From a virus (taxonomy: Duplodnaviria; Heunggongvirae; Uroviricota; Caudoviricetes): DNA of 19,074 bases. Each line of letters starts with the position of its first letter. The first letter of the stretch is position 1. The translations under genes were made by a program, and so were the position numbers. Shown here one piece after another: positions 1,484-19,074 of this stretch. The stretch is from IMG/VR virus record IMGVR_UViG_2563366969_000006; one strand, 5' to 3'. Under the pieces are notes generated by a model. That model ran no database searches, was not told the origin of the DNA, and saw nothing but the letters and a program-made list of their open reading frames with translations.

Positions 1484-1798
1484 TCACGATAGTTCCGTTT
1501 TGTTGAATTCAATTATATCAAGGTCAGAACTTTCGTAATCCTTACCGAATAAAGCAAAACATATCGCGTCAAGTTCTCTCTTATGTTTGGACGCCCGATC
1601 ATAATTACCACCCCAACAGCAAATGAATCCACCAAGTACTGCTGATTCAAAAAGTAATGATGCTGCATCAATATGTCTGAACCAGGAGTCTATAAGTAAA
1701 GCAGAGAGTGATATTAATGTTCCCCACCCGCCAATCCTTCTCCATTTCTCAGCTTCATATTTAAGAGAAGCAATATATTCAATTTTATCTCTCGTCAT
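1484..1798 (-). CDS. Small membrane protein (104 aa, two predicted transmembrane helices), last gene of the large operon; function unknown
   Basis: ORF with TGATG stop-start overlap to the upstream gene; two hydrophobic segments (IGGWGTLISLSALLIDSWF and ASLLFESAVLGGFICCWGG); lower GC than upstream genes. Confidence 0.6.
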   Translation of the reverse strand: MTRDKIEYIASLKYEAEKWRRIGGWGTLISLSALLIDSWFRHIDAASLLFESAVLGGFICCWGGNYDRASKHKRELDAICFALFGKDYESSDLDIIEFNKTELS

Positions 1799-4554
1799 CA
1801 GTTCCCCACCGCCTTTCCAAAATCCGGTGCTCTACGTGGCGCAATAGCACCCGGTTCCCACCAACTCGTTATGTCGAACTCCCGTTGCGCGCGGTCCCTT
1901 ACTCGATCATTGTAACCAGGGTTTGCCATCTCCTGAAGTTGTTGCAATATCAGGTGATTGGTTATCGCTTTCGCATACCACAGGTTTGCGAATGGGGTGA
2001 TCATGCGGGCTGTTTTCAGTGCATCGGCACCGAATGATGTTTCTTCACCCTGTAGAGCCTTCTGTGGGTTAGTAATCAGTAATTTTGTTAACTGCTCTGC
2101 AAAGCTCAACACAGGGCCACCCATAGTGGCACCGATGCTGGAGCCATATTGCGTATGGTCCTGGAAAATAAAATCACCGTAGATACCGAACGAACCACCT
2201 TTCAGTAAAGCCTGAACCCATGTGGTTGGTTTTGTCATATCCAGCGGATCATTACCATTTAACAAACTGTTCATCTGGATCGCAAACATACCAGCAAGAG
2301 TTGTTCCCCCGATATATGAGGCCAGAAATTTAATGGCCGGAACGGTGTCCAAATCCCGTGTTCTGTTAACAAGTTGCCGAAATCCAGCAAATGGGGTTGT
2401 TTTGAAGAGCATGAAGCTCTTCATTAACTCGCCAGCATCATCACGGGCATATGTATCAATACCCGTAGCGGTGGTCACAGCATTGGTCATCTCACCGTGC
2501 GTAATTCCCAGCAATTTCTGGGCTGCTTCAGCGCGTGCATTACGAATCATGCGCGTGATGGTCTGCTCAGCCTCAGCGTCGAATGCTTCTTTCATCCGTT
2601 TCAGGCGTTCTGGAGGGAGATCTCCAAGGGCTGCCAGTGCCTTTTCACTCCCGGCACGAATCCGGGTAATACGGTCTGCCATAATGTCGGCTATTACGTT
2701 ATCGGGCACAGCGTAAATCGCGTCTGGCGTCATCCCCATATGCCCGGCAGTAGTCATCGGCCTGAGTTCTGCCGCTGCCATGATGGCCCAGTCCTCATTG
2801 CTCCATCCCTTGTTAGCCAGAATGGTTTTATCGGTTCCTTTCATATCGTCCAGCGTCTTAAATTTTCTGGTCAGCTCGCCAATGTTTTTGTACATCAGGA
2901 GACCAAACGACGCTTTGTTTGCGCGGTCCATAGCGATCAGCCCGGACCACTTCAGTGTCTTCTCTGCGAACCAGCCAGTTATGCCGCGAGACAAGTCAAA
3001 CCCGCCCATTTTCGAAACCACAGCAGCATGTGAATCCACCAGCAGACCGAGTTCAGCATTCGCCTTTTTGGCATCTCCACTAAACAGGTTTTTGATAGTG
3101 TTAACGGAAAGCCGCATTCCACCACGGGTAAAGCCCAGCGCCTGCGCATTTGCCCGCATAATTGCCTGGTCGCTGGTTGCTGTCAGTACGCTGGTGCCAA
3201 GCATGGCGCTGGTCATCAGGTTACGCAGACCACCAACTGCTGAAGAGAACACACTCGATGAAGCGACACCATTTAGGCCAGCCATTGAGTTGAACATACG
3301 GGCAACTAATTTGGCCTCATCCTCCATTTCTTTTTTGCGTTTCCCGCCTGTTACTGCGCGCTTATAGATGCGATCCAGTACCAGGGAAAAGTTTCTTTCG
3401 GCGTCCGGACCAAAGGCTTTAACGACGCCCAAATCCCTGGATGATGATTGCAGGTGCGACATCATCACCCCCACCAGCGGCTGCTGAGTGTATCGTTCCA
3501 TATAGGCGAAGTGTGACTGCGCATCCTTGAACGCCATCACCCTGTGCTGAGAACCACGGCTCTTTATTCCTCCGGCTCCCATAAATGTACCAGGCTCAAT
3601 TTTGTTTGCCCCATCAGTGGCCTTCGTTTCAAAGATCGCTTCCAGTGCCTGACGGTACTCGACGTCATTCATAATGCTGCCGTCAGGATTAACGTAATTG
3701 CTGCGATCCTGCGTGTTGTAAGCGTCATCAACCCATTTCTGGCGGGCAAACTCAATCGGTGGCTGGCGACCTGAAAGACGTGCTGTAGCTTGCTCTGCCA
3801 CTGGTAACGATGCCAGCCATTCTTCGCGCCCGGCATTGCGAATAAGGTCAGCATCATCCACATATGGCGTATGCCAGTCTTCTCGCAGGCCTATGTCAAA
3901 GCCATTGTCGTTCATCTCATGACGAACACGGCCTGTTACATCCTTCCAAATCTGTGCAATTTTCTTCGCCAGGGGATTCCCGGTATCTTCGCCATATATT
4001 TCTTTCAGGATCTGGAGTTGTGCAGACTTTGCCGCCTGCCTGTCGAATACACTCCGAAACCGCTGCTCTCCAAGCGCCCTGCTCTGCTCGAAGAATTTGC
4101 GGACGTCATCACCTGCTTTTAGAAGTTCAGCACTGAGCTGACGGGACCAGTCCTGATATGCCCCAATTGCAAGTTCTTCAGCAGAAGTAACGGAGATATC
4201 AGCTTTGTCTCTCGATCGTCGGCCAGCAAAAATAAACTGCTGCAAATTAACAGGTGTCTGCTGATCAGGCGGGATGTTAGCATCGAGAGTGTCAGTAATT
4301 TTACTGATGGCGATCGCATTCTGGGCAACACGCTGTCTTTTCTTGTACACATCATGAACCACACGCTGGCGTACCAGTTCTGCTGCATCCATGTATGTTT
4401 GAGCATCAGGAATACCACTTTTGCCTTCTTTGGCATTCTTTCTGTGCACATGCTGCACAGCTTCTTTGATACGATCTTCAATATTTTTCAGCTCATCAGC
4501 CTTTGGCTGGCGACCAAGTGTCTGCGCAATAGCTTCCACACATGCCTGTTTCAT
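1798..4554 (-). CDS. Large hypothetical protein (about 918 aa), Gly/Ala-rich hydrophobic stretches, no NTPase motif; possibly internal-virion/ejection-like
   Basis: Long ORF. Likely start is the ATG at 4552-4554, preceded by GAGGAA and in a TAATG overlap with the upstream stop, rather than the unsupported ATG at 4575. No Walker A found on reading. Confidence 0.75.
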   Translation of the reverse strand: MKQACVEAIAQTLGRQPKADELKNIEDRIKEAVQHVHRKNAKEGKSGIPDAQTYMDAAELVRQRVVHDVYKKRQRVAQNAIAISKITDTLDANIPPDQQTPVNLQQFIFAGRRSRDKADISVTSAEELAIGAYQDWSRQLSAELLKAGDDVRKFFEQSRALGEQRFRSVFDRQAAKSAQLQILKEIYGEDTGNPLAKKIAQIWKDVTGRVRHEMNDNGFDIGLREDWHTPYVDDADLIRNAGREEWLASLPVAEQATARLSGRQPPIEFARQKWVDDAYNTQDRSNYVNPDGSIMNDVEYRQALEAIFETKATDGANKIEPGTFMGAGGIKSRGSQHRVMAFKDAQSHFAYMERYTQQPLVGVMMSHLQSSSRDLGVVKAFGPDAERNFSLVLDRIYKRAVTGGKRKKEMEDEAKLVARMFNSMAGLNGVASSSVFSSAVGGLRNLMTSAMLGTSVLTATSDQAIMRANAQALGFTRGGMRLSVNTIKNLFSGDAKKANAELGLLVDSHAAVVSKMGGFDLSRGITGWFAEKTLKWSGLIAMDRANKASFGLLMYKNIGELTRKFKTLDDMKGTDKTILANKGWSNEDWAIMAAAELRPMTTAGHMGMTPDAIYAVPDNVIADIMADRITRIRAGSEKALAALGDLPPERLKRMKEAFDAEAEQTITRMIRNARAEAAQKLLGITHGEMTNAVTTATGIDTYARDDAGELMKSFMLFKTTPFAGFRQLVNRTRDLDTVPAIKFLASYIGGTTLAGMFAIQMNSLLNGNDPLDMTKPTTWVQALLKGGSFGIYGDFIFQDHTQYGSSIGATMGGPVLSFAEQLTKLLITNPQKALQGEETSFGADALKTARMITPFANLWYAKAITNHLILQQLQEMANPGYNDRVRDRAQREFDITSWWEPGAIAPRRAPDFGKAVGN

Positions 4555-6614
4555 TATGGGTTCCTCAAGAAGCACGCTGCTGCTACAGAATAAACCTTCG
4601 ATTCGTTCTGGACTGTCTTAATCTGTTCATCCAACTCAGCCAGGAGATCAGAAAGTTTTGTCGGGTTTCCGGTTTCCGGGTGAGCTATAGTCAGCTCAGG
4701 ATTGGCAACAGCCATGTCCCTGGCAGCCATAAGGTCATAGCTGTTGGATGAGAGAACCTGCCCTGTATCTGGATCAACGCTGATGTCCCCTCTGTGTTCA
4801 CCAGCCGATGAGAAAGCACTTTCAGCACGAGGGACAGGCGATTCACTAATTGGCTCTGATGATGTTTCGTATCTGACACCATTTTCTTCAAAAACCTTTT
4901 GTATTTCATGGTATTGCTCTTGGTAAGTATCAGATATATCTGATCGCAATGGACCATCAAGCCCTCGCGCCATCCCCCCAACATTTACAGGCTGACCATC
5001 ATTAAGTTGCCTGTATGCTTCATCCATGGCGTCAACATGGCTGTTGATGCTCTCATTGCTGGTATGAAGCACTGGTGACGATTCAATATCGTAATGAAGC
5101 CCCTCATTCAAAATGTGGGCTGCATCAATATCGCTTGGTTTTATTCTTTCCCTCGCCCGGATACCAAAAACTTTTTCTACTGCGGCTTCCAGTTTCATAT
5201 TGCGAAGACGCATACTTACGAGTAACCGTAACTGCTCAGGTGTAACGGTTCCAACCTGAATACCACTGTATCTGAATATATAGGCTTTAAAACCTGAAAT
5301 AATTTTTTCCCATGATGAAACGCTTGTCTTTAGAGATGGATTTACTGCATGTGCGGCAACTTCTTCAGCGTACAACCACTCAGGATATGTTTCAGGGTAC
5401 TCACCCCTTTTCTTATATTCATAATATTGTGACATCCCATATGCAAATTCAGGATAGTCAGAATGCTTGTTTGCAGATTTAAGTACAGCATTAGCTAGCT
5501 TTCTGGCCTTCCAGTCAGGGTAATGGCGCTGCTCAAGATGAAGCGCCTCGTGATGAAGGGTTTCTAACAGTTCTTCATGGTCTTTTAATCCATTAATATT
5601 TATTCTTATTATTGGTTCTTTTCCGGAAGCTACTGTCACATGACCTTTATTCAGAAGTATTTCTCCATCACTATTTTTTATTGCTGGTTCATTAATAAGT
5701 TCTATTACTCCTGAATCAGATAAATCACGAACCATTGACTCAATGTTACCATCAGGAGATTGCTGATAATGTTCACCAAAAGTTGATTTTATTTCTTCTG
5801 CAGAAATGTTCGACTCTGTACCATCATGGTTATTATGGGTAGTCAGGTGATGAACGCCACCAAAGACCCCGCCTAAAACGGCATCGACTAACATCGCCTG
5901 ACCGTCAAATACCCGGTACTGTTTTGCCATCTCCGTGTAGCCTTTTTCCTCCAGTGTTGCGCCTACTGAGTAACGGTTCAGTCCACCGAATCCGGTGTTG
6001 ATTGCCACACCTGAGGCAATGCGCGTTGCCAGTGTGGTGCCGACGGCAGCGGGTAAGGCCATACCCACAGCATTGAAAAGGCTCTGCTGCGTTGCCAGGT
6101 TACGCGCTGTAGCCTCGTCTACTCCCTTCCCTTTAAAATCCTGATAGGACTGCTCATACGTAGAACTGAAGGCTGTAGCAGCGCCGATGAGCGGACCACC
6201 AAACATAGTTGTTCCGATTGCAGGAACAAATTTACCAAGCTCATTTAATACCTCAGCCGCCATTCCCTGGCTGCCTGCATCAGGCTTCACATAGCTGCGG
6301 GCATCCTGTAACTGTTTTCCGATCGTGTCGTATGTATCATTCAGTGTTTTGTCAGCATCAGGGAACATCTCCCGAAAAATATTAACTGTCGGTGCCACGT
6401 CTGCGGTAAATGCCGGATCGCTAATCAGACGCTTGCTGAATCCGACGGCAGACTGCGCGAGACCGAGAGCCCCCTCCGCCACGCCGCTCAAAAGTGCAGT
6501 ACCTGAACCCTGGAAGGGAGTCGGATCGTAGTCTTCTGGCCTTGCTGGGTTGGCAACTGTTTTGTCGTCAATCCATGCCTGACCTTCTGGAGCCAAAGAA
6601 AAAACATCAGACAT
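4554..6614 (-). CDS. Large hypothetical protein (686 aa) with an HExxH (HEALH) zincin-like motif and Gly/Ala-rich hydrophobic region
   Basis: Long ORF; TAATG overlap with the upstream 843-aa gene; GAGGG ribosome-binding site; ETLHHEALHLEQRH encoded around 5534-5560; no P-loop. Confidence 0.75.
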   Translation of the reverse strand: MSDVFSLAPEGQAWIDDKTVANPARPEDYDPTPFQGSGTALLSGVAEGALGLAQSAVGFSKRLISDPAFTADVAPTVNIFREMFPDADKTLNDTYDTIGKQLQDARSYVKPDAGSQGMAAEVLNELGKFVPAIGTTMFGGPLIGAATAFSSTYEQSYQDFKGKGVDEATARNLATQQSLFNAVGMALPAAVGTTLATRIASGVAINTGFGGLNRYSVGATLEEKGYTEMAKQYRVFDGQAMLVDAVLGGVFGGVHHLTTHNNHDGTESNISAEEIKSTFGEHYQQSPDGNIESMVRDLSDSGVIELINEPAIKNSDGEILLNKGHVTVASGKEPIIRININGLKDHEELLETLHHEALHLEQRHYPDWKARKLANAVLKSANKHSDYPEFAYGMSQYYEYKKRGEYPETYPEWLYAEEVAAHAVNPSLKTSVSSWEKIISGFKAYIFRYSGIQVGTVTPEQLRLLVSMRLRNMKLEAAVEKVFGIRARERIKPSDIDAAHILNEGLHYDIESSPVLHTSNESINSHVDAMDEAYRQLNDGQPVNVGGMARGLDGPLRSDISDTYQEQYHEIQKVFEENGVRYETSSEPISESPVPRAESAFSSAGEHRGDISVDPDTGQVLSSNSYDLMAARDMAVANPELTIAHPETGNPTKLSDLLAELDEQIKTVQNESKVYSVAAACFLRNP

Positions 6615-9145
6615 TATTCAACCCTCACGACAATAGCTTTATTGGTTCTGGGATCTGTTGCCCAGCGTCCGCTACCATTTACAAGCCGATACCGGTTATT
6701 GCCGATATTAACTGGCGTGAAATTTGACACTGCATTTACGTTAAGTCCGGCATCTTTCAGTGCTTGTTTCGCAGATGTGGTATAGCGATCTTTGAAAGTA
6801 GATTTATCCATGCCAAAAGGCATTACAACGTCGCCGCCATTAAAACCATTGTATATACCGCCAGTAGCATACTTCACGGCATCAGCTACAATGTCTGTAT
6901 CAGGCATACTGGTTCTTACCGTAGAGGCATCACCAGATTGATAAGCTATTCCTGCGTAAGCGGCTTTGAAAAGGCTATAACTGATCTGGCGTAACTGCGG
7001 GTTACGGGCAAATGCATTACCTACCTGTTCGTCGAAAGCGTCTTTCATCTTATCTTCGCTCGGCAACTGTACCGGAGTTATGCCCGCATTCTTCATGGCC
7101 TTCGTCGGATTCAGTAGTTGGTCGCCGGAAAGAATAACCTTTGCAACGTCGTACTTGTTCATCGTCGGCTTATACCCGATGAACTGACTATATGGGATCG
7201 TCGGCCTGGTGTTGTCGTACTGGTTATCCGGCGTGCCCAGCAGCAGCGCAGAATAGGCTGTTGCCGCACTGTTCGGAGCAATTACAGATGCCACCTGCCG
7301 TATTGCTGGCGCAGGCAGCTTCTCCCCCATGCTCTGCAACAGTTTAATTGTCTGGTCAACGTTCTGAGTGCCGCGCACCTGCTGTGCCAGCGCAGCCGCC
7401 TCTTCACTGTTGAGGAGTGGGGCATTAATTCCCAACGCGCGTAAGCTTTCCTGCGACGAGAAACGGTTAGCCACCTCGGCAGTGATGTCGTCAGGGTTGT
7501 TGCTGGTGATCGGCTTATAGGCTCCGATTTCCACCGCTGCACTAAACGGATTATTCTGCCTCTGGGTTATTACCTTCGTGGCTGCCGCCGATACCCGGTC
7601 GAATAACTCCGCACGAGACGCATACCCCTCCCCTGTCTCACCAGTATCCGGGCGTAATTGCTCAACATATGCGGTAATGCTGCTTGTCGGCATGTTGCGG
7701 AAAGAGCCTATATACTGTCCGGCGATCTGCAAATTTCTGAACTCGGTATATCGCAGGTTTCCTTCTCTGACACCATAAGCAGCAATGAACTCACCCTCAC
7801 CAGGCGGGTTAGGAAATTCAACGCCACGCATATACGCAGCCGTTGCATCGCGAACCCGGCTTTCGAGCATCGTTCTATATTCAGCCTGCTGCTGTCTGGC
7901 TAATGCATCCGTCTGTCGCAACACGCTGGCCTGATCTGATTCACTTAAAGCATCGAACCAGGCTACACCGGTATAACGTTTATTTTTTGTCGGTAGCTGA
8001 GAAAGCCCCAGTGCGGCACTAACGCCAGCGGCCAATTGCTGATCACTGTACGGCTGACTGCCTTGCTCATGATGAATAATTGCTTTGCACAGAGATTTCA
8101 GTGTGTCAGGATTTGATGCGTCAAGCGGCTGGTCAGGAGTTACACCGAGCTGAGCACATACTGCCCGTATATAAGCATCAGTTTTATTATCATCACTGGC
8201 CGGTGCCCAGCGATTAATTATTTCGCTGATGGTGTCATAACCCTGACGCTGATACGACAGCAAATTGCGACCAAGCGCGCGAATACCGTGTTCAGGGGTT
8301 TCGAATTTGGCAAAGCGACCATCATCACCAGTCTGCCCAACCCACGGATTAGTTTTGCTGTATTCAAGATTGCCGGGGTTATTGTTGCGTATACCGCGGG
8401 TACGATCGGAAGAGCCACTATCTGCTACAGCACGGCGAGATCCAGCAGCAGTATCGCTTAACTCGCCATTTTGCTGTCTTACCTGAAGATAGTTTGCTCC
8501 AATAGCATTTTGAGCAGTTGCTTTTGCTGTTGCTTCTTTAAACTCGATTTTCTTGGCCTGGATTTGCTCGTCGCTCCAGCCATGCGCAATACCGTAATCC
8601 TCAATTTGCTGGAAAGTTTGCGTATTAGCCAATATGTATGCTGCGTTGTCGCCATATAATGCTGAGGCATTTTTACCATTATTCAGCAGTGTCGCCTGAA
8701 ACTGGCCTTCTTCGTAGGCATTTATTTGCCCTATCTCGTACCTCCCGGCCTGCGTAGCGAACTGAATACGCTGCTGCTGCGCCTGCTGCATGAAAGCATT
8801 ACGAGCCTGTTCATCCGGCAGCGACATAGCCAGTTGTTCGATCTGAGCATCAAACTGCTGTGTATACTCATGGCCTTTTCCAATAGCATTTTTCCCTTTC
8901 AGGTTAAGCAATCCTGTTTCAGGATTATTCAGCAGATCACTGCCTGTCTGACTGAGTTTAAGGGATGCCTCCTGAATCAAGGCAATATTGGCACGCTGTT
9001 TTGCCTGACCAAAAACATCAATTGCCTCTGCCCCTGCCCGAACAAAAGCATCACCAATACCTGGCTGAGAAAACGTCTGCAAGCCTGCTGACTGAACTCC
9101 ACGGCTCTCAACCTGACGTCCGGATACTGTTGGTACGACTGGCAT
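6614..9145 (-). CDS. Large hypothetical protein (843 aa), Gln/Ala-rich, with a conserved-looking block GIRNNNPGN...W.G...G.FA.F (possible peptidoglycan-hydrolase-like or virion-associated domain; unverified)
   Basis: Long ORF with a strong AGGAGG ribosome-binding site 6 nt upstream of the ATG; motif block encoded around 8155-8395; no P-loop. Confidence 0.75.
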   Translation of the reverse strand: MPVVPTVSGRQVESRGVQSAGLQTFSQPGIGDAFVRAGAEAIDVFGQAKQRANIALIQEASLKLSQTGSDLLNNPETGLLNLKGKNAIGKGHEYTQQFDAQIEQLAMSLPDEQARNAFMQQAQQQRIQFATQAGRYEIGQINAYEEGQFQATLLNNGKNASALYGDNAAYILANTQTFQQIEDYGIAHGWSDEQIQAKKIEFKEATAKATAQNAIGANYLQVRQQNGELSDTAAGSRRAVADSGSSDRTRGIRNNNPGNLEYSKTNPWVGQTGDDGRFAKFETPEHGIRALGRNLLSYQRQGYDTISEIINRWAPASDDNKTDAYIRAVCAQLGVTPDQPLDASNPDTLKSLCKAIIHHEQGSQPYSDQQLAAGVSAALGLSQLPTKNKRYTGVAWFDALSESDQASVLRQTDALARQQQAEYRTMLESRVRDATAAYMRGVEFPNPPGEGEFIAAYGVREGNLRYTEFRNLQIAGQYIGSFRNMPTSSITAYVEQLRPDTGETGEGYASRAELFDRVSAAATKVITQRQNNPFSAAVEIGAYKPITSNNPDDITAEVANRFSSQESLRALGINAPLLNSEEAAALAQQVRGTQNVDQTIKLLQSMGEKLPAPAIRQVASVIAPNSAATAYSALLLGTPDNQYDNTRPTIPYSQFIGYKPTMNKYDVAKVILSGDQLLNPTKAMKNAGITPVQLPSEDKMKDAFDEQVGNAFARNPQLRQISYSLFKAAYAGIAYQSGDASTVRTSMPDTDIVADAVKYATGGIYNGFNGGDVVMPFGMDKSTFKDRYTTSAKQALKDAGLNVNAVSNFTPVNIGNNRYRLVNGSGRWATDPRTNKAIVVRVE

Positions 9146-15058: not shown

Positions 15059-15616
15059 TTACACATTGCTTTCACCCTCCAGAAAATCAGGCTGATATTT
15101 ACGCCATAGCGCCCGCTCTTCTCGTTCCAGTGCATCTTTTGCCTCTTTGCATTGCTGTAACCTGTAACCGCGTTTGCTGGCTTCCTGTTGATATGCAGCC
15201 TGACGTTTACTGAAATCATTCAGCATGGCAAACGGAACACCATAACCCCCCGTTTTGCGGATTGAAGGAATCACCTCGCGGAATACCCAGTTACTGAAAC
15301 GGTGCGCAAATGTGCCTGGTGTGGAAGCTTTACGGCTGCGGACGATCAGTTTGTAGAAACCTGATTCAGAGACAACATTCCAGCTTCTGGCACCACCACG
15401 CTTACCGGAATGCCCCTCGGTTAAAGCTAGGGTCATTACCTCGTCGTTATCCAGAACTGAAACAGCATCAGTAACATTGCTGATTTCCTGCGCAGCACAC
15501 ACATCAGCGCCAACAAACCACGGCTCGCCGTTGATACTCACTATGCGCACCTGAATGTCATCGAATTTAATGACAGAGATTTCAGTGCGCCCGGCATAAA
15601 AGACAGGTTTACGCAT
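15059..15616 (-). CDS. Bro-N domain protein (185 aa), putative antirepressor
   Basis: N-terminal region (F.D..VRIVSINGEPWFVGADVCAA ... SGFYKLIVRSRKASTPGTFAHRFSNWVFREVIPSIRKTGGY) matches the Bro-N pattern from memory; GGAGGT ribosome-binding site; start overlaps the stop of the upstream gene. Confidence 0.7.
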   Translation of the reverse strand: MRKPVFYAGRTEISVIKFDDIQVRIVSINGEPWFVGADVCAAQEISNVTDAVSVLDNDEVMTLALTEGHSGKRGGARSWNVVSESGFYKLIVRSRKASTPGTFAHRFSNWVFREVIPSIRKTGGYGVPFAMLNDFSKRQAAYQQEASKRGYRLQQCKEAKDALEREERALWRKYQPDFLEGESNV

Positions 15617-16433
15617 GGCTGCTCACCTCCATGCGGCGGGCTAACCAGCGTTGCGAAAGGCGAATTAATTCAGCTTTCCGCTGGTGGTAGTCCAGGCCTA
15701 ACTCAATCAGCGTGATATTGCTCTGCTCAAGGTAAGAAAGGTGCTCAAGCTGCAACACGCTCATGTGGTCGCGTGGTTCACCTGTGATGCCGTTCGCCTG
15801 CGCCCACTGTTTTGCAGTCATGCCACCCAGCACGATACGCGCCAGCATATTAGCTTCCGTAGTGTAGTGGTGCTGGAGCGTGTTTTTACCCAGTTCAGCC
15901 CGGTACGCCTCCAGCGCGGCACACATTGGCTTAAAGTAGCTGGCTACGGTGATACGGGCTTTCAGTTCCCGGCGTAACGCTGCGGAACGTACAGGCGCTA
16001 CCTTGTGTAGCTCCTCCTCGCATTTGATGAAGTACTGACGAACGGCGCGGCCCTGTTCGGTGCGTTCGATCATTGCCAGTTCTTTCGCCATTCCGACACT
16101 TAACAGATAGTCTTTACCGGGTCTGCCAGAGTGCTTAATCTTGCTGTAAGCCTCGCCATTCGGGCTTTTCCCCAAATTTGGGGAAATTGTTTTATGGACT
16201 GAGTAATCGTACCCAATGGTGAAGTCATATTCAGAGATACGATCAGTGATCCATGTAGAGAAGTCTTTTCCCACGCCCAACGCTTTGTGTAACGCTTTTG
16301 CGCTAACAACAGCGGCTTCACGCCCGCCAATAACGCCGGAAATAACCGGGATAATTTCGCCGAAATTTTGCAGATTCTGGTTTTCAGGCCGAACAAAGCC
16401 CTGCCCCTGTACGGGCGTTTTTCGCAGTTTCAT
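15609..16433 (-). CDS. AntA/AntB-like antirepressor family protein (274 aa)
   Basis: N-terminal segment (AVVSAKALHKALGVGKDFSTWITDRISEYDF) resembles the AntA domain; GGAG ribosome-binding site 5 nt upstream of the ATG. Confidence 0.55.
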   Translation of the reverse strand: MKLRKTPVQGQGFVRPENQNLQNFGEIIPVISGVIGGREAAVVSAKALHKALGVGKDFSTWITDRISEYDFTIGYDYSVHKTISPNLGKSPNGEAYSKIKHSGRPGKDYLLSVGMAKELAMIERTEQGRAVRQYFIKCEEELHKVAPVRSAALRRELKARITVASYFKPMCAALEAYRAELGKNTLQHHYTTEANMLARIVLGGMTAKQWAQANGITGEPRDHMSVLQLEHLSYLEQSNITLIELGLDYHQRKAELIRLSQRWLARRMEVSSHA

Positions 16434-16508: not shown

Positions 16509-16706
16509 TCAGGCAGCCGTTCCGCGTGATTCGGCAATACGCTGATTGATCCATTCGTCAATTTCACTTTCAACGAAAGCAATCGCTCGCGAGCCAATTT
16601 TAACTGATGCAGGAAATTTACCTTGCCCCATAAGGCGATAAATCCATGCCTTGCTATATCCAGTTCTACGCTGAACTTCTGTTAAACGAATAAGCGTATT
16701 TGACAT
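16509..16706 (-). CDS. alpA: AlpA-family transcriptional regulator / excisionase-like protein (65 aa)
   Basis: Size, position next to a P4-type integrase, and pattern (LTEVQRRTGYSKAWIYRLMGQGKFP...ESEIDEWINQR) characteristic of AlpA. Confidence 0.8.
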   Translation of the reverse strand: MSNTLIRLTEVQRRTGYSKAWIYRLMGQGKFPASVKIGSRAIAFVESEIDEWINQRIAESRGTAA

Positions 16707-16775
16707 CTATTTACCTCATAACGTCTACTCAATTTGACGAGGTAATCATGGCACAGAAATAACGAATATTTTCAT

Positions 16776-16918
16776 ACCCTCAGGCCTAATGGTTACCGGA
16801 AGGAAATTAACCCTAAGGGTGATGGTAATCGGGAGGAAATCTACCCTAAGGGTGATGGTAAAATTGACGGGGAAGATAAAAAAATACCCTCAGGGTAACA
16901 GTAAATCACCCTCAGGGT
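16776..16918. promoter_or_regulatory. Array of four palindromic operator-like sites ACCCT-N-AGGGT (16810-16820, 16843-16853, 16886-16896, 16908-16918) plus a partial site at 16776-16784, in the alpA upstream region
   Basis: Seen directly; sites 1-2 share the longer unit ACCCTAAGGGTGATGGTAA; located in the 227-bp intergenic region 5' of alpA. Confidence 0.55.
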
Positions 16919-16933
16919 ATGCGGTATGGTGCG

Positions 16934-17737
16934 TTAATCCGGCTTTGCGTTCTTTTGGCTGTTGTCTCGGTTAATAGGGCAGGCAGTCCTCTCTATGAGC
17001 GTTGCAAGAGCATTACTTGCCCCCCACTGCTTAAGCTCCCTGGTTATCGCTTCTTGATTTCCCCTGGTGGCAAAATCATTTTCTGGATCGTAATTGGCCC
17101 ACTCTCTGTTTCTAATCTCAATAGCCTTAGCTAATGGGTCTTTATCCCAGTATTTATATAAGTGTATCGGGCGCTCTTGCTCTAACTGCTCTATCCTTGC
17201 CCTTAACTCTGCGTTTTCTCTTTCCAGCATTGCGATTTGGGATAATAAATCATCCTCTGTACGCAACTCTTTCTTTTCAATATCGCGTCCTTGTACCTCG
17301 TCATTTTCAGAAGAGTTAGCGCCTTCCAGCTTCGTTAACGCGTCAAGGACATCGGGAAAAATTGCGAAAATTTCACCCCTTATAAATCCAATGTTCTCAA
17401 ATTCGGGATCTTCCCAATAACCGGACACCAGAAAACCATTTTCATCCCTCTCACCAGGTAAACAACCATGTTTCCGAACCGCATCCAGATTTCTATAAAG
17501 AACATCATAATCAAATTCATCCCGATACGGGTTACAAAAAGATTCCAACAGCTTAAATTCATTTACTGTGTACAGGCGGATATGTTCTCCGCTTATTCTC
17601 CTGAGTATCCAAGTTATGAGATCTGAAACATCATAATCATCACCAGCGACCTTAAGCACGACCTCAAGAAATTCACGTAAAGAAATAAAATCTTTTTTGT
17701 ATTCGTTTAATTCGGCATGAATATCAATCATACGCAC
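16934..17737 (-). CDS. Hypothetical acidic protein (267 aa) with predicted coiled-coil, between integrase and alpA
   Basis: ORF with GAGGTG ribosome-binding site; the segment LLSQIAMLERENAELRARIEQLEQER looks like a coiled coil; no enzymatic motif recognised. Confidence 0.6.
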   Translation of the reverse strand: MRMIDIHAELNEYKKDFISLREFLEVVLKVAGDDYDVSDLITWILRRISGEHIRLYTVNEFKLLESFCNPYRDEFDYDVLYRNLDAVRKHGCLPGERDENGFLVSGYWEDPEFENIGFIRGEIFAIFPDVLDALTKLEGANSSENDEVQGRDIEKKELRTEDDLLSQIAMLERENAELRARIEQLEQERPIHLYKYWDKDPLAKAIEIRNREWANYDPENDFATRGNQEAITRELKQWGASNALATLIERTACPINRDNSQKNAKPD

Positions 17738-17859
17738 ACCTCAGCGTCCTCTACTGTAGTGGCTGTGCCAGCCCGTCGAGGTATACGGTTTTTCGGGAGC
17801 GACCCTAGACACAGCTTTTTCTTTCGTCGCTCAAAGTCTACTACTGTATACTCAACCAG

Positions 17860-19074
17860 TCATCCACATTTTCCGAACTTGCCATGCACCACGTTGCCGC
17901 CCTGTTCCAGTGAGTCCATATAGTCGGCGTACCACTGGAGCATCTCGCGCCGCCCGTCCAGATATTGCGCATGATTGTACGTGCCACGAATTGAGTTCTT
18001 ATCAACGTGTGCAAGCTGCGTTTCTATCCACGCGGTGTTATAGCCCTGCTCATGTAAAATCGTGCTCATCGTGTGCCGGAACCCATGACCAGTAACGCGC
18101 CCAGAATAGCCAATACGACGAATAAGCACGTTCATCGCCATTTCACTCATCGGCTTACTGTGCTGGATTCGACCAGGGAAAATAAACTGATACTGCCCCG
18201 TCATGTGTTTTAACTGTTCCAGAATAGCGATCGCCTGTTCTGAAAGCGGCACACAATGAGGACGGCGCATCTTCATTCGTTCTTTAGGCACTTCCCACAA
18301 ACGATTATCAAAATCGATCTCCTGCCATTCTGCCTGTCGTAATTCCCCTGGCCGGAGCCCTGTCAGAATCAATAATCGCATACCCAGCTTGACGATCTGG
18401 CTTCCGGTGTACGTATTAAGAACGCGGAAAAATTCCGGCAGTTCGTCGGCCTTCAAATAGGCATAATGCTCTTTTTTGTGTGGAGCAAATGCGCTTGCCA
18501 GATCTGGTGCGGGGTTATATTCAGCGCGTCCGGTGATGATTGCGTACCGGAACACCTCGCCGCATCGCTGGCGAACCTTACGCAATTTTTCGGTCGCCCC
18601 ACGGTCATTAAGACGGGAGAGAACCGCAAGCAACTCCATTGGCTTAATTTCTGCGATCGGCCTGCCGCCAATGTACGGAAAAACGTCTTTTTCAAACGTC
18701 TCGATCATTTCCTCGGCGTATGACGATGACCACCTGTCGATCCTCTTTTCATACCATTCGCGAGCGATACCCTCAAAAGTATTGCCAAATTTGCTCGCCT
18801 GTTCTCGCTTTTGAGCTTTTCTGGCCTCACTTGGATTTATACCACCAGCAAGAAGCCTTTTAGCCTCATCCCTTGCCGCTCTGGCATCAGACAGAGACAC
18901 ATCAGGGTACACGCCCAACGACAACATTTTGGGCTTTCCTGCAAATCTGTAACGTAGTCGCCACCCTTTCGAGCCGTTCGGCTCAATGAGTAACGAAAGC
19001 CCGTTACCGTCATTGAGTGTATAAGCCTTTTCTTTCGGCTTCGCGCGCCTGATAGCAAGGTCTGAAAGCAGCAT
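17860..19074 (-). CDS. int: Tyrosine recombinase, P4-family integrase (404 aa)
   Basis: N-terminus LSDLAIRRAKPKEKAYTLNDGNGLSLLIEPNGSKGWRLRY and C-terminal catalytic region HGFRHTMST...LAHVDKNSIRGTYNHAQYL follow the P4/CP4-57 IntA pattern; start codon coincides with the window end. Confidence 0.9.
   Translation of the reverse strand: MLLSDLAIRRAKPKEKAYTLNDGNGLSLLIEPNGSKGWRLRYRFAGKPKMLSLGVYPDVSLSDARAARDEAKRLLAGGINPSEARKAQKREQASKFGNTFEGIAREWYEKRIDRWSSSYAEEMIETFEKDVFPYIGGRPIAEIKPMELLAVLSRLNDRGATEKLRKVRQRCGEVFRYAIITGRAEYNPAPDLASAFAPHKKEHYAYLKADELPEFFRVLNTYTGSQIVKLGMRLLILTGLRPGELRQAEWQEIDFDNRLWEVPKERMKMRRPHCVPLSEQAIAILEQLKHMTGQYQFIFPGRIQHSKPMSEMAMNVLIRRIGYSGRVTGHGFRHTMSTILHEQGYNTAWIETQLAHVDKNSIRGTYNHAQYLDGRREMLQWYADYMDSLEQGGNVVHGKFGKCG

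Follow-up and report, generated by a model that had tools for sequence, protein, structure and literature searches.

Gene X and the palindromes between int and alpA

The window analyzed here, a stretch of 19,074 nucleotides (nt) recorded as IMG/VR virus entry IMGVR_UViG_2563366969_000006, is an Escherichia coli chromosomal island that lies at tRNA-Gly and adjoins actS/xdhA, as seen in the RefSeq record of the identical island. Three of its genes follow one another on the minus strand: the tyrosine integrase gene int (17860-19074), an uncharacterized gene that we call X (16934-17731), and alpA (16509-16706), the presumed regulated gene. Int, directly upstream of the module, contains Phage_integrase, Arm-DNA-bind_3, and Phage_int_M domains, and the alpA product matches Phage_AlpA at E = 2.4e-19. 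These positions agree with a preliminary description of this DNA that had placed X in the integrase-alpA slot; the island is of the P4 or phage-inducible chromosomal island (PICI) type. Between the X stop codon and the alpA start lie four perfect 11-bp ACCCTNAGGGT palindromes and one degenerate copy, all within 150 bp, and comparison with related islands ties this array to the C-terminal domain of X, a putative regulator of alpA.

The open reading frame (ORF) at this position spans 16934-17737 on the minus strand and encodes 267 amino acids (aa) counted from a GTG. The likely start is instead the ATG at 17731, which gives a protein of 265 aa with its stop codon at 16934-16936. This start is preferred because it is the one used in RefSeq for the identical gene (WP_001580987.1, named ‘hypothetical protein’ or ‘coiled-coil domain-containing protein’), because all homologues in the alignment begin with MIDI or MVDI, because a GAGG lies 7 nt 5' of the ATG, and because of the spacing to the int-alpA RNA described below.

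X can be divided into four parts, all encoded on the minus strand. The N-terminal domain (aa 1-139; 17315-17731) is an acidic, variable cassette with a mean pairwise identity of 0.43 and is the putative input, or sensor; AlphaFold2 predicts it with a local distance difference test score (pLDDT) of about 85 and a beta-helix-helix-beta-beta start. It is joined to the remainder by an acidic linker (aa 140-156; 17264-17314; mean pairwise identity 0.52) that is predicted to be disordered, with pLDDT below 50. The net charge of -14 over residues 1-139 and the isoelectric point of 4.45 over residues 1-156 confirm the acidic N-terminal half noted earlier. The coiled coil of the preliminary description was also recovered, as a leucine zipper (aa 157-186; 17174-17263; mean pairwise identity 0.54) whose a/d positions over aa 163-184 read L-I-L-N-L-I-L and for which a single long helix is predicted at residues 159-186 (pLDDT 88-98, AlphaFold2). 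Asn at an a position, as found here, is a classic determinant of parallel dimers, and its occurrence together with hydrophobic a/d heptads and a predicted helix suggests that the X zipper forms a parallel dimer.

The fourth part, a C-terminal four-helix domain (C-domain; aa 187-256; 16964-17173), has a mean pairwise identity of 0.73 and is the putative operator-recognition domain. Its motif, ERPI-L..DPL--AI-IRN-EW-NYD...AIE-VACPI-R, contains W, I, E, C, P, and R residues that are invariant in 51 sequences. The C-domain always occupies the extreme C-terminus, behind many unrelated N-termini in proteins of 64-515 aa; it is also found alone, and in nearly all X family members a coiled coil directly precedes it. 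One relative (P0078, 344 aa) has the zipper and the first half of the C-domain fused to a LacI-type periplasmic-binding-protein domain; the fusion most probably arose by deletion, as a chimera, and does not represent a native arrangement.

Full-length homologues of X occur in E. coli, Salmonella, Citrobacter, Kluyvera, Klebsiella, Pantoea, Cedecea, Atlantibacter, Photorhabdus, and low-GC viral contigs, and the order int-X-alpA is kept in Enterobacterales and in the low-GC loci. X was found in 148 of 5426 complete E. coli genomes, with at least 80% coverage in 147 of the 148, and is annotated as an ordinary coding sequence in 40 of 40 sampled E. coli records. The preliminary description had named a pseudogene-like distribution and clear homology to a housekeeping family as points that would tell against its reading; the former was not seen in these carriers and the latter was not found in family searches. 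A word-indexed search with X returned 43 clusters, from Enterobacterales and a few metagenomic sequences, all of them devoid of a Pfam domain, and an exhaustive profile search of 1.84 billion representatives returned 125 clusters only.

Searching X against Pfam, PHROGs, PADLOC, NCBIfam, and PDB sequences gave coiled-coil noise only, consistent with the earlier view of X as an uncharacterized protein with no enzymatic motif. The Pfam bZIP_2 match (E = 0.055) misses the cut-off and is noise, no family among the PADLOC-DB v2 defense models matches X at E <= 1, and a Foldseek search of BFVD returned no match at E <= 0.001. Pfam searches with 118 X relatives, and PHROGs and PDB profile searches with the C-domain alignment, returned nothing informative. 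No description of the X family, its operator arrays, or the gene between int and alpA was found in the searchable literature, and later surveys list int and alpA alone as the content of the integration zone (PMC10111431).

The palindrome array fills the gap downstream of X. The distal site O1 (ACCCTCAGGGT; 16908-16918) is centered at -207 from the alpA ATG. O2 (16886-16896) is centered at -185 and is followed by a run of seven Ts, O3 (ACCCTAAGGGT; 16843-16853) lies at -142, and O4 (16810-16820) at -109. The degenerate promoter-proximal site O5 (GGCCTGAGGGT; 16776-16786), in which the AGGGTA half-site is conserved, is centered at -75. The resulting center-to-center spacings are 22, 43, 33, and 34 bp. 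Across the whole window 0.34 matches to ACCCTNAGGGT are expected, and none is found outside the X-alpA gap. O3 and O4 are held within a 33-bp tandem duplication (window 16789-16854), with O3 inside one of its copies. Alignments of two E. coli strains (H19 and H20) to this region are split in two and about 32 bp shorter, which suggests that operator copy number differs between strains.

Repeat arrays and C-terminal domains in related islands

The comparison drew on 80 loci, taken from different species and selected for an AlpA with 68-83% identity to that of the window; each was classed with a hidden Markov model (HMM) of the C-domain. The forward count was limited to loci with 300 bp or more of upstream sequence. 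There were 82 of these, of which the AlpA scan supplied 77 and X homologues led to the other 5 (3 distinct); in each, the 350 bp upstream of alpA was searched with one mismatch allowed. The palindrome was present in 12 of the 15 loci with an X-type C-domain, in two or more copies in 8, and in none of the 67 loci of close AlpA relatives without one. The reverse test looked in 2.9 million viral contigs for palindrome pairs separated by 10-36 bp and returned 48 loci. Of these, 33 have the end of an X-type ORF at a distance of 10-120 bp, 3 more run off the contig edge beside alpA, and the remaining 12 have unrelated GC content and neither X nor alpA. No convincing case of the operator pair in an ordinary helper phage was found among these 12. 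Read in both directions, the loci point to a strict, two-way, class-specific linkage of the C-domain and the repeat array.

A single non-X-linked reverse match has several palindrome pairs. This locus, L201, is a 127-kb IMG/VR contig with three ACCCTNAGGGT pairs, at 3494, 5601, and 8008, and no X-type or AlpA gene nearby.

Three other roles for the palindromes were considered and rejected. The presence of AGGGTA-N4-TACCCT upstream of alpA in EcCIMP1 raised the idea of AlpA autoregulatory sites; the lack of palindromes in 67 of 67 X-minus loci with close AlpA relatives speaks against it. Against integrase arm sites stand a distance of more than 2 kb from the attachment (att) site and integrases up to 81% identical that occur without the palindromes, and against terminators the T-run, which is not kept in other loci.

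Most related islands have a single co-directional ORF (200-345 aa) between int and alpA, which stops 130-230 bp short of alpA. BLAST joins 34 of 43 such slot proteins by shared N- or C-terminal modules, and the C-termini fall into few classes. Class A, to which X belongs, combines the X-type C-terminus with ACCCTNAGGGT palindromes (12 loci; mean of 2.58 palindromes, CTTCCA 0). Class B has the C-terminal motif ..AGKxTALxLIAGMAIALEK..GKLNKS.. and 5-7 direct (A/G)CTTCCA(A/C) repeats on one strand; its 14 loci (L011, L017, L023, L024, L035-L037, L044, L047, L062, L073, L075, L152, and L153) have up to six strand-specific direct copies, with a mean of 2.79 exact CTTCCA copies and 0 palindromes, and some have TTTCCA/CTTCTA-type repeat variants. 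The distant class A relatives that form class C are accompanied by GGTGGG/CCCACC-type repeats, class D (..DDPKDxQxIKExIxPFALE..) by no obvious repeats, and class E, with its own C-terminal type, by its own inverted repeats. Palindromes number 0 and the CTTCCA mean is about 0 in the other classes (20 loci).

A natural swap separates the contributions of the two ends of the protein. At L152 the slot protein P0098 joins an X-type N-domain (E = 5e-15) to a class-B C-terminus; behind its gene lie no palindromes but five repeats of the CTTCCA type, four exact and one reading GTTCCA. At L153, a variant class-B C-terminus (P0099) is found with the variant repeat CTACCAA, and divergent C-domains are found with divergent sites at L015, L032, and L005. 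The low-GC loci, which are probably of Pasteurellaceae type, have the order X-like gene, about 150 bp, and a 67-aa AlpA-type gene; their repeats are rearranged to AGGGTGATAG-N14-CTATCACCCT or, with the most divergent C-domain, are of another kind, CTATAT. Across these loci the type of DNA repeat is seen to follow the C-terminal domain, not the N-terminal one, and the rule of one slot gene with its own repeat array seems general.

Within class A the array is kept over large distances. The same array lies behind the X homologues of L002-L004, which are only 32-39% identical, and a variant array lies behind that of L005, the most divergent homologue. Site centers at -75, -108, -151, -174, and -206 from the alpA ATG are kept across genera, the position of O4 among them. 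The position and degeneracy of O5 recur in L002, L004, L033, and L041, and its center is at -93 in L027. DNA between the distal sites is unalignable between E. coli and Salmonella, and the sites themselves therefore appear to be under selection. The spacings (n = 34) cluster at 21-23, 29-35, 42-44, and 52-56 bp, multiples of about 10.8 bp; the phasing resultant length, R = 0.72, was reached by 0 of 5000 random sets, a figure that gives no clean probability since the loci share ancestry.

Alignment of the window with L002 located the variable part of X. Nucleotide identity is 94% from int through the leader to about the first seven codons of X (to 17711). From 17710 to 17162, across the N-domain, linker, and zipper, the two cannot be aligned; beyond this stretch the C-domain is 81% identical, and alpA and antA are 86% identical. 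The exchange breakpoints coincide exactly with domain boundaries, a pattern that marks the N-domain as an exchangeable cassette replaced between near-identical islands. By analogy with the Stl/Rpr repressors of Gram-positive PICIs, allele variation in the N-domain would suggest helper specificity.

Leader RNA, alpA promoter region and island setting

A full-length match to Rfam RF02996, the int-alpA RNA (model positions 1-71), lies on the minus strand at 17748-17815, with a score of 46.9 bits against a gathering score of 35.8. The match ends 17 nt before the X ATG, and in 11 other loci, of classes A, B, D, and E, RF02996 ends 16-18 nt before the start of the slot gene; its consensus ends AgGG. 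Four loci without a slot gene have no match at the gathering threshold, and neither do one class-B and one class-C locus. Given this fixed spacing and its absence where there is no slot gene, the motif behaves as the 5' leader of the slot gene. It looks like a cis-acting element, not the free small RNA (sRNA) of its Rfam classification or an alpA leader: it sits beside the slot gene and roughly 0.7-1.0 kb from alpA (~1 kb in the window). The preliminary description had treated the slot as variable accessory cargo. With one co-directional gene, a leader at fixed spacing, and a class-specific array, the slot reads instead as a built-in regulatory module with a swapped N-cassette.

A sigma-70 consensus scan of the alpA promoter region returned no match, so any alpA promoter here is weak. 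Read by eye, TGcCATGAT at 16745-16753 on the minus strand is a possible extended -10 element, and related loci have TGcCATCAT. If this assignment of the alpA -10 is correct, the center of the proximal site would fall near -43 from the transcription start.

Between this element and alpA, a hairpin at 16712-16744 (minus strand) pairs the Shine-Dalgarno (SD) GAGG at 16714-16717 with an upstream anti-SD arm (minimum free energy -8.7 kcal/mol, z = -0.68). Compensatory stem variants occur among the loci: CCUCGU/AUGAGG, CUCCUGUAG/CUACAGGAG, CUCCUAUAG/CUAUAGGAG, ACUCCAGU/AUUGGAGU, and, in the low-GC type, ACCUCUCGUU/AACGAGAGGU. The alpA SD is paired in 70% of 84 leaders versus 57% of shuffled controls, a weak statistic. 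If alpA transcripts start inside the 5' arm, only int/X read-through transcripts would be translationally silent.

The island itself is ~18 kb long and extends from tRNA-Gly, beside int, to flanking hypothetical and glycoside hydrolase genes. On the minus strand int, X, and alpA are followed by antA-type and BRO-N antirepressor-like genes, icd-like and DUF4222 genes, a primase/helicase gene that matches DUF927 at E = 1e-46, genes for SSB and a ProQ/FinO-like protein, a frameshifted perC, and four large orphan genes. The int, alpA, and primase (pri-rep) genes all point in one direction, the att site is specific, and the size lies within about 15-20 kb, as expected of a Gram-negative PICI. The RefSeq annotation of the identical island lists no phage structural or lysis genes, and it likewise lacks sid, delta, and psu, the capsid-size and transactivation genes of a strictly P4-like element. 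Gram-negative PICIs are described as having integration (int, alpA), Bro, replication, and late zones (PMC10111431), and the window has this layout. Induction and packaging by a helper phage have been shown for the related elements EcCICFT073 and EcCIMP1.

Several observations concern the remainder of the island. The AntA-type protein encoded after alpA (15609-16433, minus strand) matches the PADLOC candidate defense model PDC-S22 over residues 179-262 (E = 1.7e-10). At the 3' end, four consecutive overlapping or abutting genes (1484-9145, minus strand) encode proteins of 843, 686, 925, and 104 aa; the large 3' genes have no Pfam match, and the four have no PADLOC match. They may constitute a new defense or interference system, or may be counterparts of the ‘DNA transfer protein’-like genes of EcCIMP1. 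Motifs of the P1/P7-type immunity RNA system (C4 antisense RNA, isrK, and c4-a1b1 targets) occur in the Bro zone of L005, L011, L031, L041, and L137, 1-2 kb downstream of alpA; none was found in the window at the gathering threshold.

A putative regulator of alpA

AlpA is the master activator of Gram-negative PICIs and activates its own promoter; helper phages raise alpA transcription, and uncontrolled AlpA expression harms the cell (PMC6092414). In the same work a global repressor in these islands is called ‘unclear’ and the inducer route is described as not known. We propose, with a probability of roughly 0.55, that X is a modular, dimeric, sequence-specific DNA-binding regulator that gates alpA.

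We infer DNA binding by X, the sign of the regulation, and an input ligand from comparative sequence data, and the model built on them is as follows. The X transcript would begin with the int-alpA leader RNA just 3' of int. The zipper (aa 157-186) would pair two four-helix C-domains, and each X dimer could then read one palindrome of 11-13 bp, (T)ACCCTNAGGGT(A). The compact, confidently predicted C-domain behind a zipper agrees with a site of two-fold symmetry. The four strong sites and the weak proximal one lie on one face of the helix and would be filled cooperatively. We favor repression, in which the occupied array would shut the weak alpA promoter and block int/X read-through in the quiescent island. 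The N-domain would serve as the input: binding of a helper-phage protein would release or re-model the complex, and alpA would fire, auto-activate, and induce the island.

Repression is favored on four grounds. With its position directly after int, X is probably expressed while the island is quiescent; int/X read-through would have to cross the gap to reach alpA, and the array occupies all of it; uncontrolled AlpA expression is harmful; and a hypervariable, cassette-exchanged input domain is what helper-specific sensing would be expected to produce, as in Stl of the Staphylococcus aureus pathogenicity islands (SaPIs).

A number of points weigh against this proposal. Its main weakness is the C-domain, which is charge-neutral and in which no recognizable DNA-binding fold and no helix-turn-helix (HTH) was detected. 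Since the intergenic DNA adjoins the 3' end of the gene, co-inheritance could account for part of their association; the loci that enter the phasing analysis are likewise non-independent through shared ancestry. A proximal site near -43 fits a class-II activator as well as it fits occlusion of the -35 region. X is not a universal induction route, since the X type occurs in only about 14% of islands with close AlpA relatives. Some functional PICIs apparently have no slot gene, namely the Xenorhabdus loci and, seemingly, EcCICFT073 (PMC6092414).

The strongest competing explanation, a serious one although less probable than our own, is that X activates alpA, with the proximal dimer and cooperative upstream sites recruiting RNA polymerase once the N-domain senses a helper product. 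The comparative evidence for operator binding applies equally here, and the alpA promoter has no consensus sigma-70 match. With the by-eye -10 at 16745-16750, the proximal site at ~-43 abuts the -35 region; lambda CI at PRM, whose site also abuts the -35 region, is a case of class-II activation. The rise in alpA transcription caused by helper phages (PMC6092414) points the same way. The promoter, however, was assigned by eye. The array takes up all of the space behind X, reaching over 130 bp upstream, as would suit a roadblock or repressor complex. Genes right after int are likely to be on in the quiescent state, and AlpA already activates its own promoter.

The preliminary description had left the function of X between a regulator, a sensor of helper proteins, and a single-gene defense or abortive-infection factor. 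The first two suggestions fit the comparative evidence best; the third fares poorly, and we regard it as improbable that X is 5'-end cargo that acts in anti-phage defense, abortive infection, or helper interference while the palindromes serve another purpose. According to the Penadés laboratory, some PICIs have immune genes at the 5' or 3' end (PMC11364771). The hypervariable, exchanged N-domain resembles an arms-race specificity domain, and its acidic character could allow it to bind a phage protein. Against this, no PADLOC match, effector-like domain, toxin-like feature, or partner gene was found for X. Its position, size, leader RNA, and downstream repeats are kept across unrelated slot classes, unlike in cargo hotspots, and what is conserved in X is a small domain linked to a DNA motif. 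A phage-sensing regulator that fires the satellite could still look like ‘defense’ in a plating assay.

Least probable of all is that the palindromes are linked to X by location alone and are bound by another factor (AlpA, the integrase, or a protein of the host or helper) or function in RNA, as hairpins or terminators, while the C-domain binds a conserved protein partner. In favor of this, the C-domain has no detectable DNA-binding fold, O2 with its seven Ts scores terminator-like, and the gene end is contiguous with the intergenic DNA. Against it, relatives of AlpA (68-83% identity) and of the integrase (up to 81%) occur without the palindrome in all 67 X-minus loci. Other loci do not keep the T-run, and a stem of 4-5 bp closed by a loop of 1-3 nt makes a poor RNA element. 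Whole-helical-turn spacing points to a protein on duplex DNA, and the repeat type switches with the C-terminal class although the N-domain is unchanged.

As a repressor of alpA, X would be a functional analogue of Stl/Rpr, the master repressors of SaPIs and other Gram-positive PICIs, built from unrelated parts. Like Stl, X is encoded by the satellite beside int, would control the start switch, and combines a putative DNA-binding part with a highly divergent part; in Stl the divergent part binds a helper-phage protein (PMC6092414). X differs in having no sequence or fold similarity to Stl/Rpr and no recognizable HTH, in the position of the putative DNA-binding module, which is C-terminal and not N-terminal, and in its orientation, which is co-directional with alpA and not divergent. 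Its target would be the activator gene alpA and not a whole operon, with repression and helper sensing both predicted for X.

The predicted arrangement of X dimers on several helically phased palindromes, with a weak proximal site next to the -35 region, resembles that of lambda CI at OR/OL. Both repression and class-II activation are possible for a CI-type regulator. Unlike CI, X has no HTH or LexA-like cleavage domain and would dimerize through a leucine zipper, and no divergent promoter pair is evident. X shares with bZIP proteins a predicted parallel zipper with Asn at an a position, located next to the putative recognition element, and a palindromic candidate target; the X zipper, however, precedes a globular four-helix domain and does not follow a basic helix. 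AlpA (PF05930) is a small regulator of the integration zone, but is not homologous to X, and the palindromes do not follow it.

Two proteins in comparable positions were examined as relatives of X. YfjH of E. coli K-12 CP4-57 (318 aa, uncharacterized) also lies in the intA-alpA gap, but on the opposite strand (L088, 2145-3101, minus strand). It has no significant similarity to X: the C-domain HMM does not match it, and the best alignment, which covers 39 residues in the region of the class-A C-domain, has E = 0.27. Its last ~60 residues show a non-significant resemblance to the C-domain that includes a basic tail after an A-x-x-x-V/A motif, which may reflect chance or a very remote relationship. 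The EcCIMP1_002 slot ORF was considered as a stand-alone X C-domain and ruled out, as no related ORF was found there; in the study of EcCIMP1 the slot ORF is regarded as possibly accessory (PMC11773190).

A broader possibility, which we put forward tentatively and rate below the proposal for X itself, is that the slot proteins, with X as class A, fill a missing role in many Gram-negative PICIs by serving both to sense the helper phage and as master regulators. The N-cassette would set the helper, the C-domain class would pick the operator array, and the int-alpA RNA would be the leader of the regulator itself. The class-A C-domain would then be an orphan fold, one of several unrelated small C-terminal domains. 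This wider family of slot regulators appears to be undescribed in the searchable literature.

Helper-phage sensing by Gram-negative PICIs is an acknowledged open question. If our reading of X is correct, X-type proteins would be a missing regulatory layer for a sizeable subset of satellites, and the N-domain cassette would be a sequence-level predictor of helper specificity. An orphan Rfam motif would be reinterpreted as the leader of a regulator, and the C-terminal domain would add a small, new fold for DNA recognition. Engineering of PICIs into delivery and diagnostic vehicles is already under way, and a compact regulator with its operator and exchangeable inputs could find practical use there.

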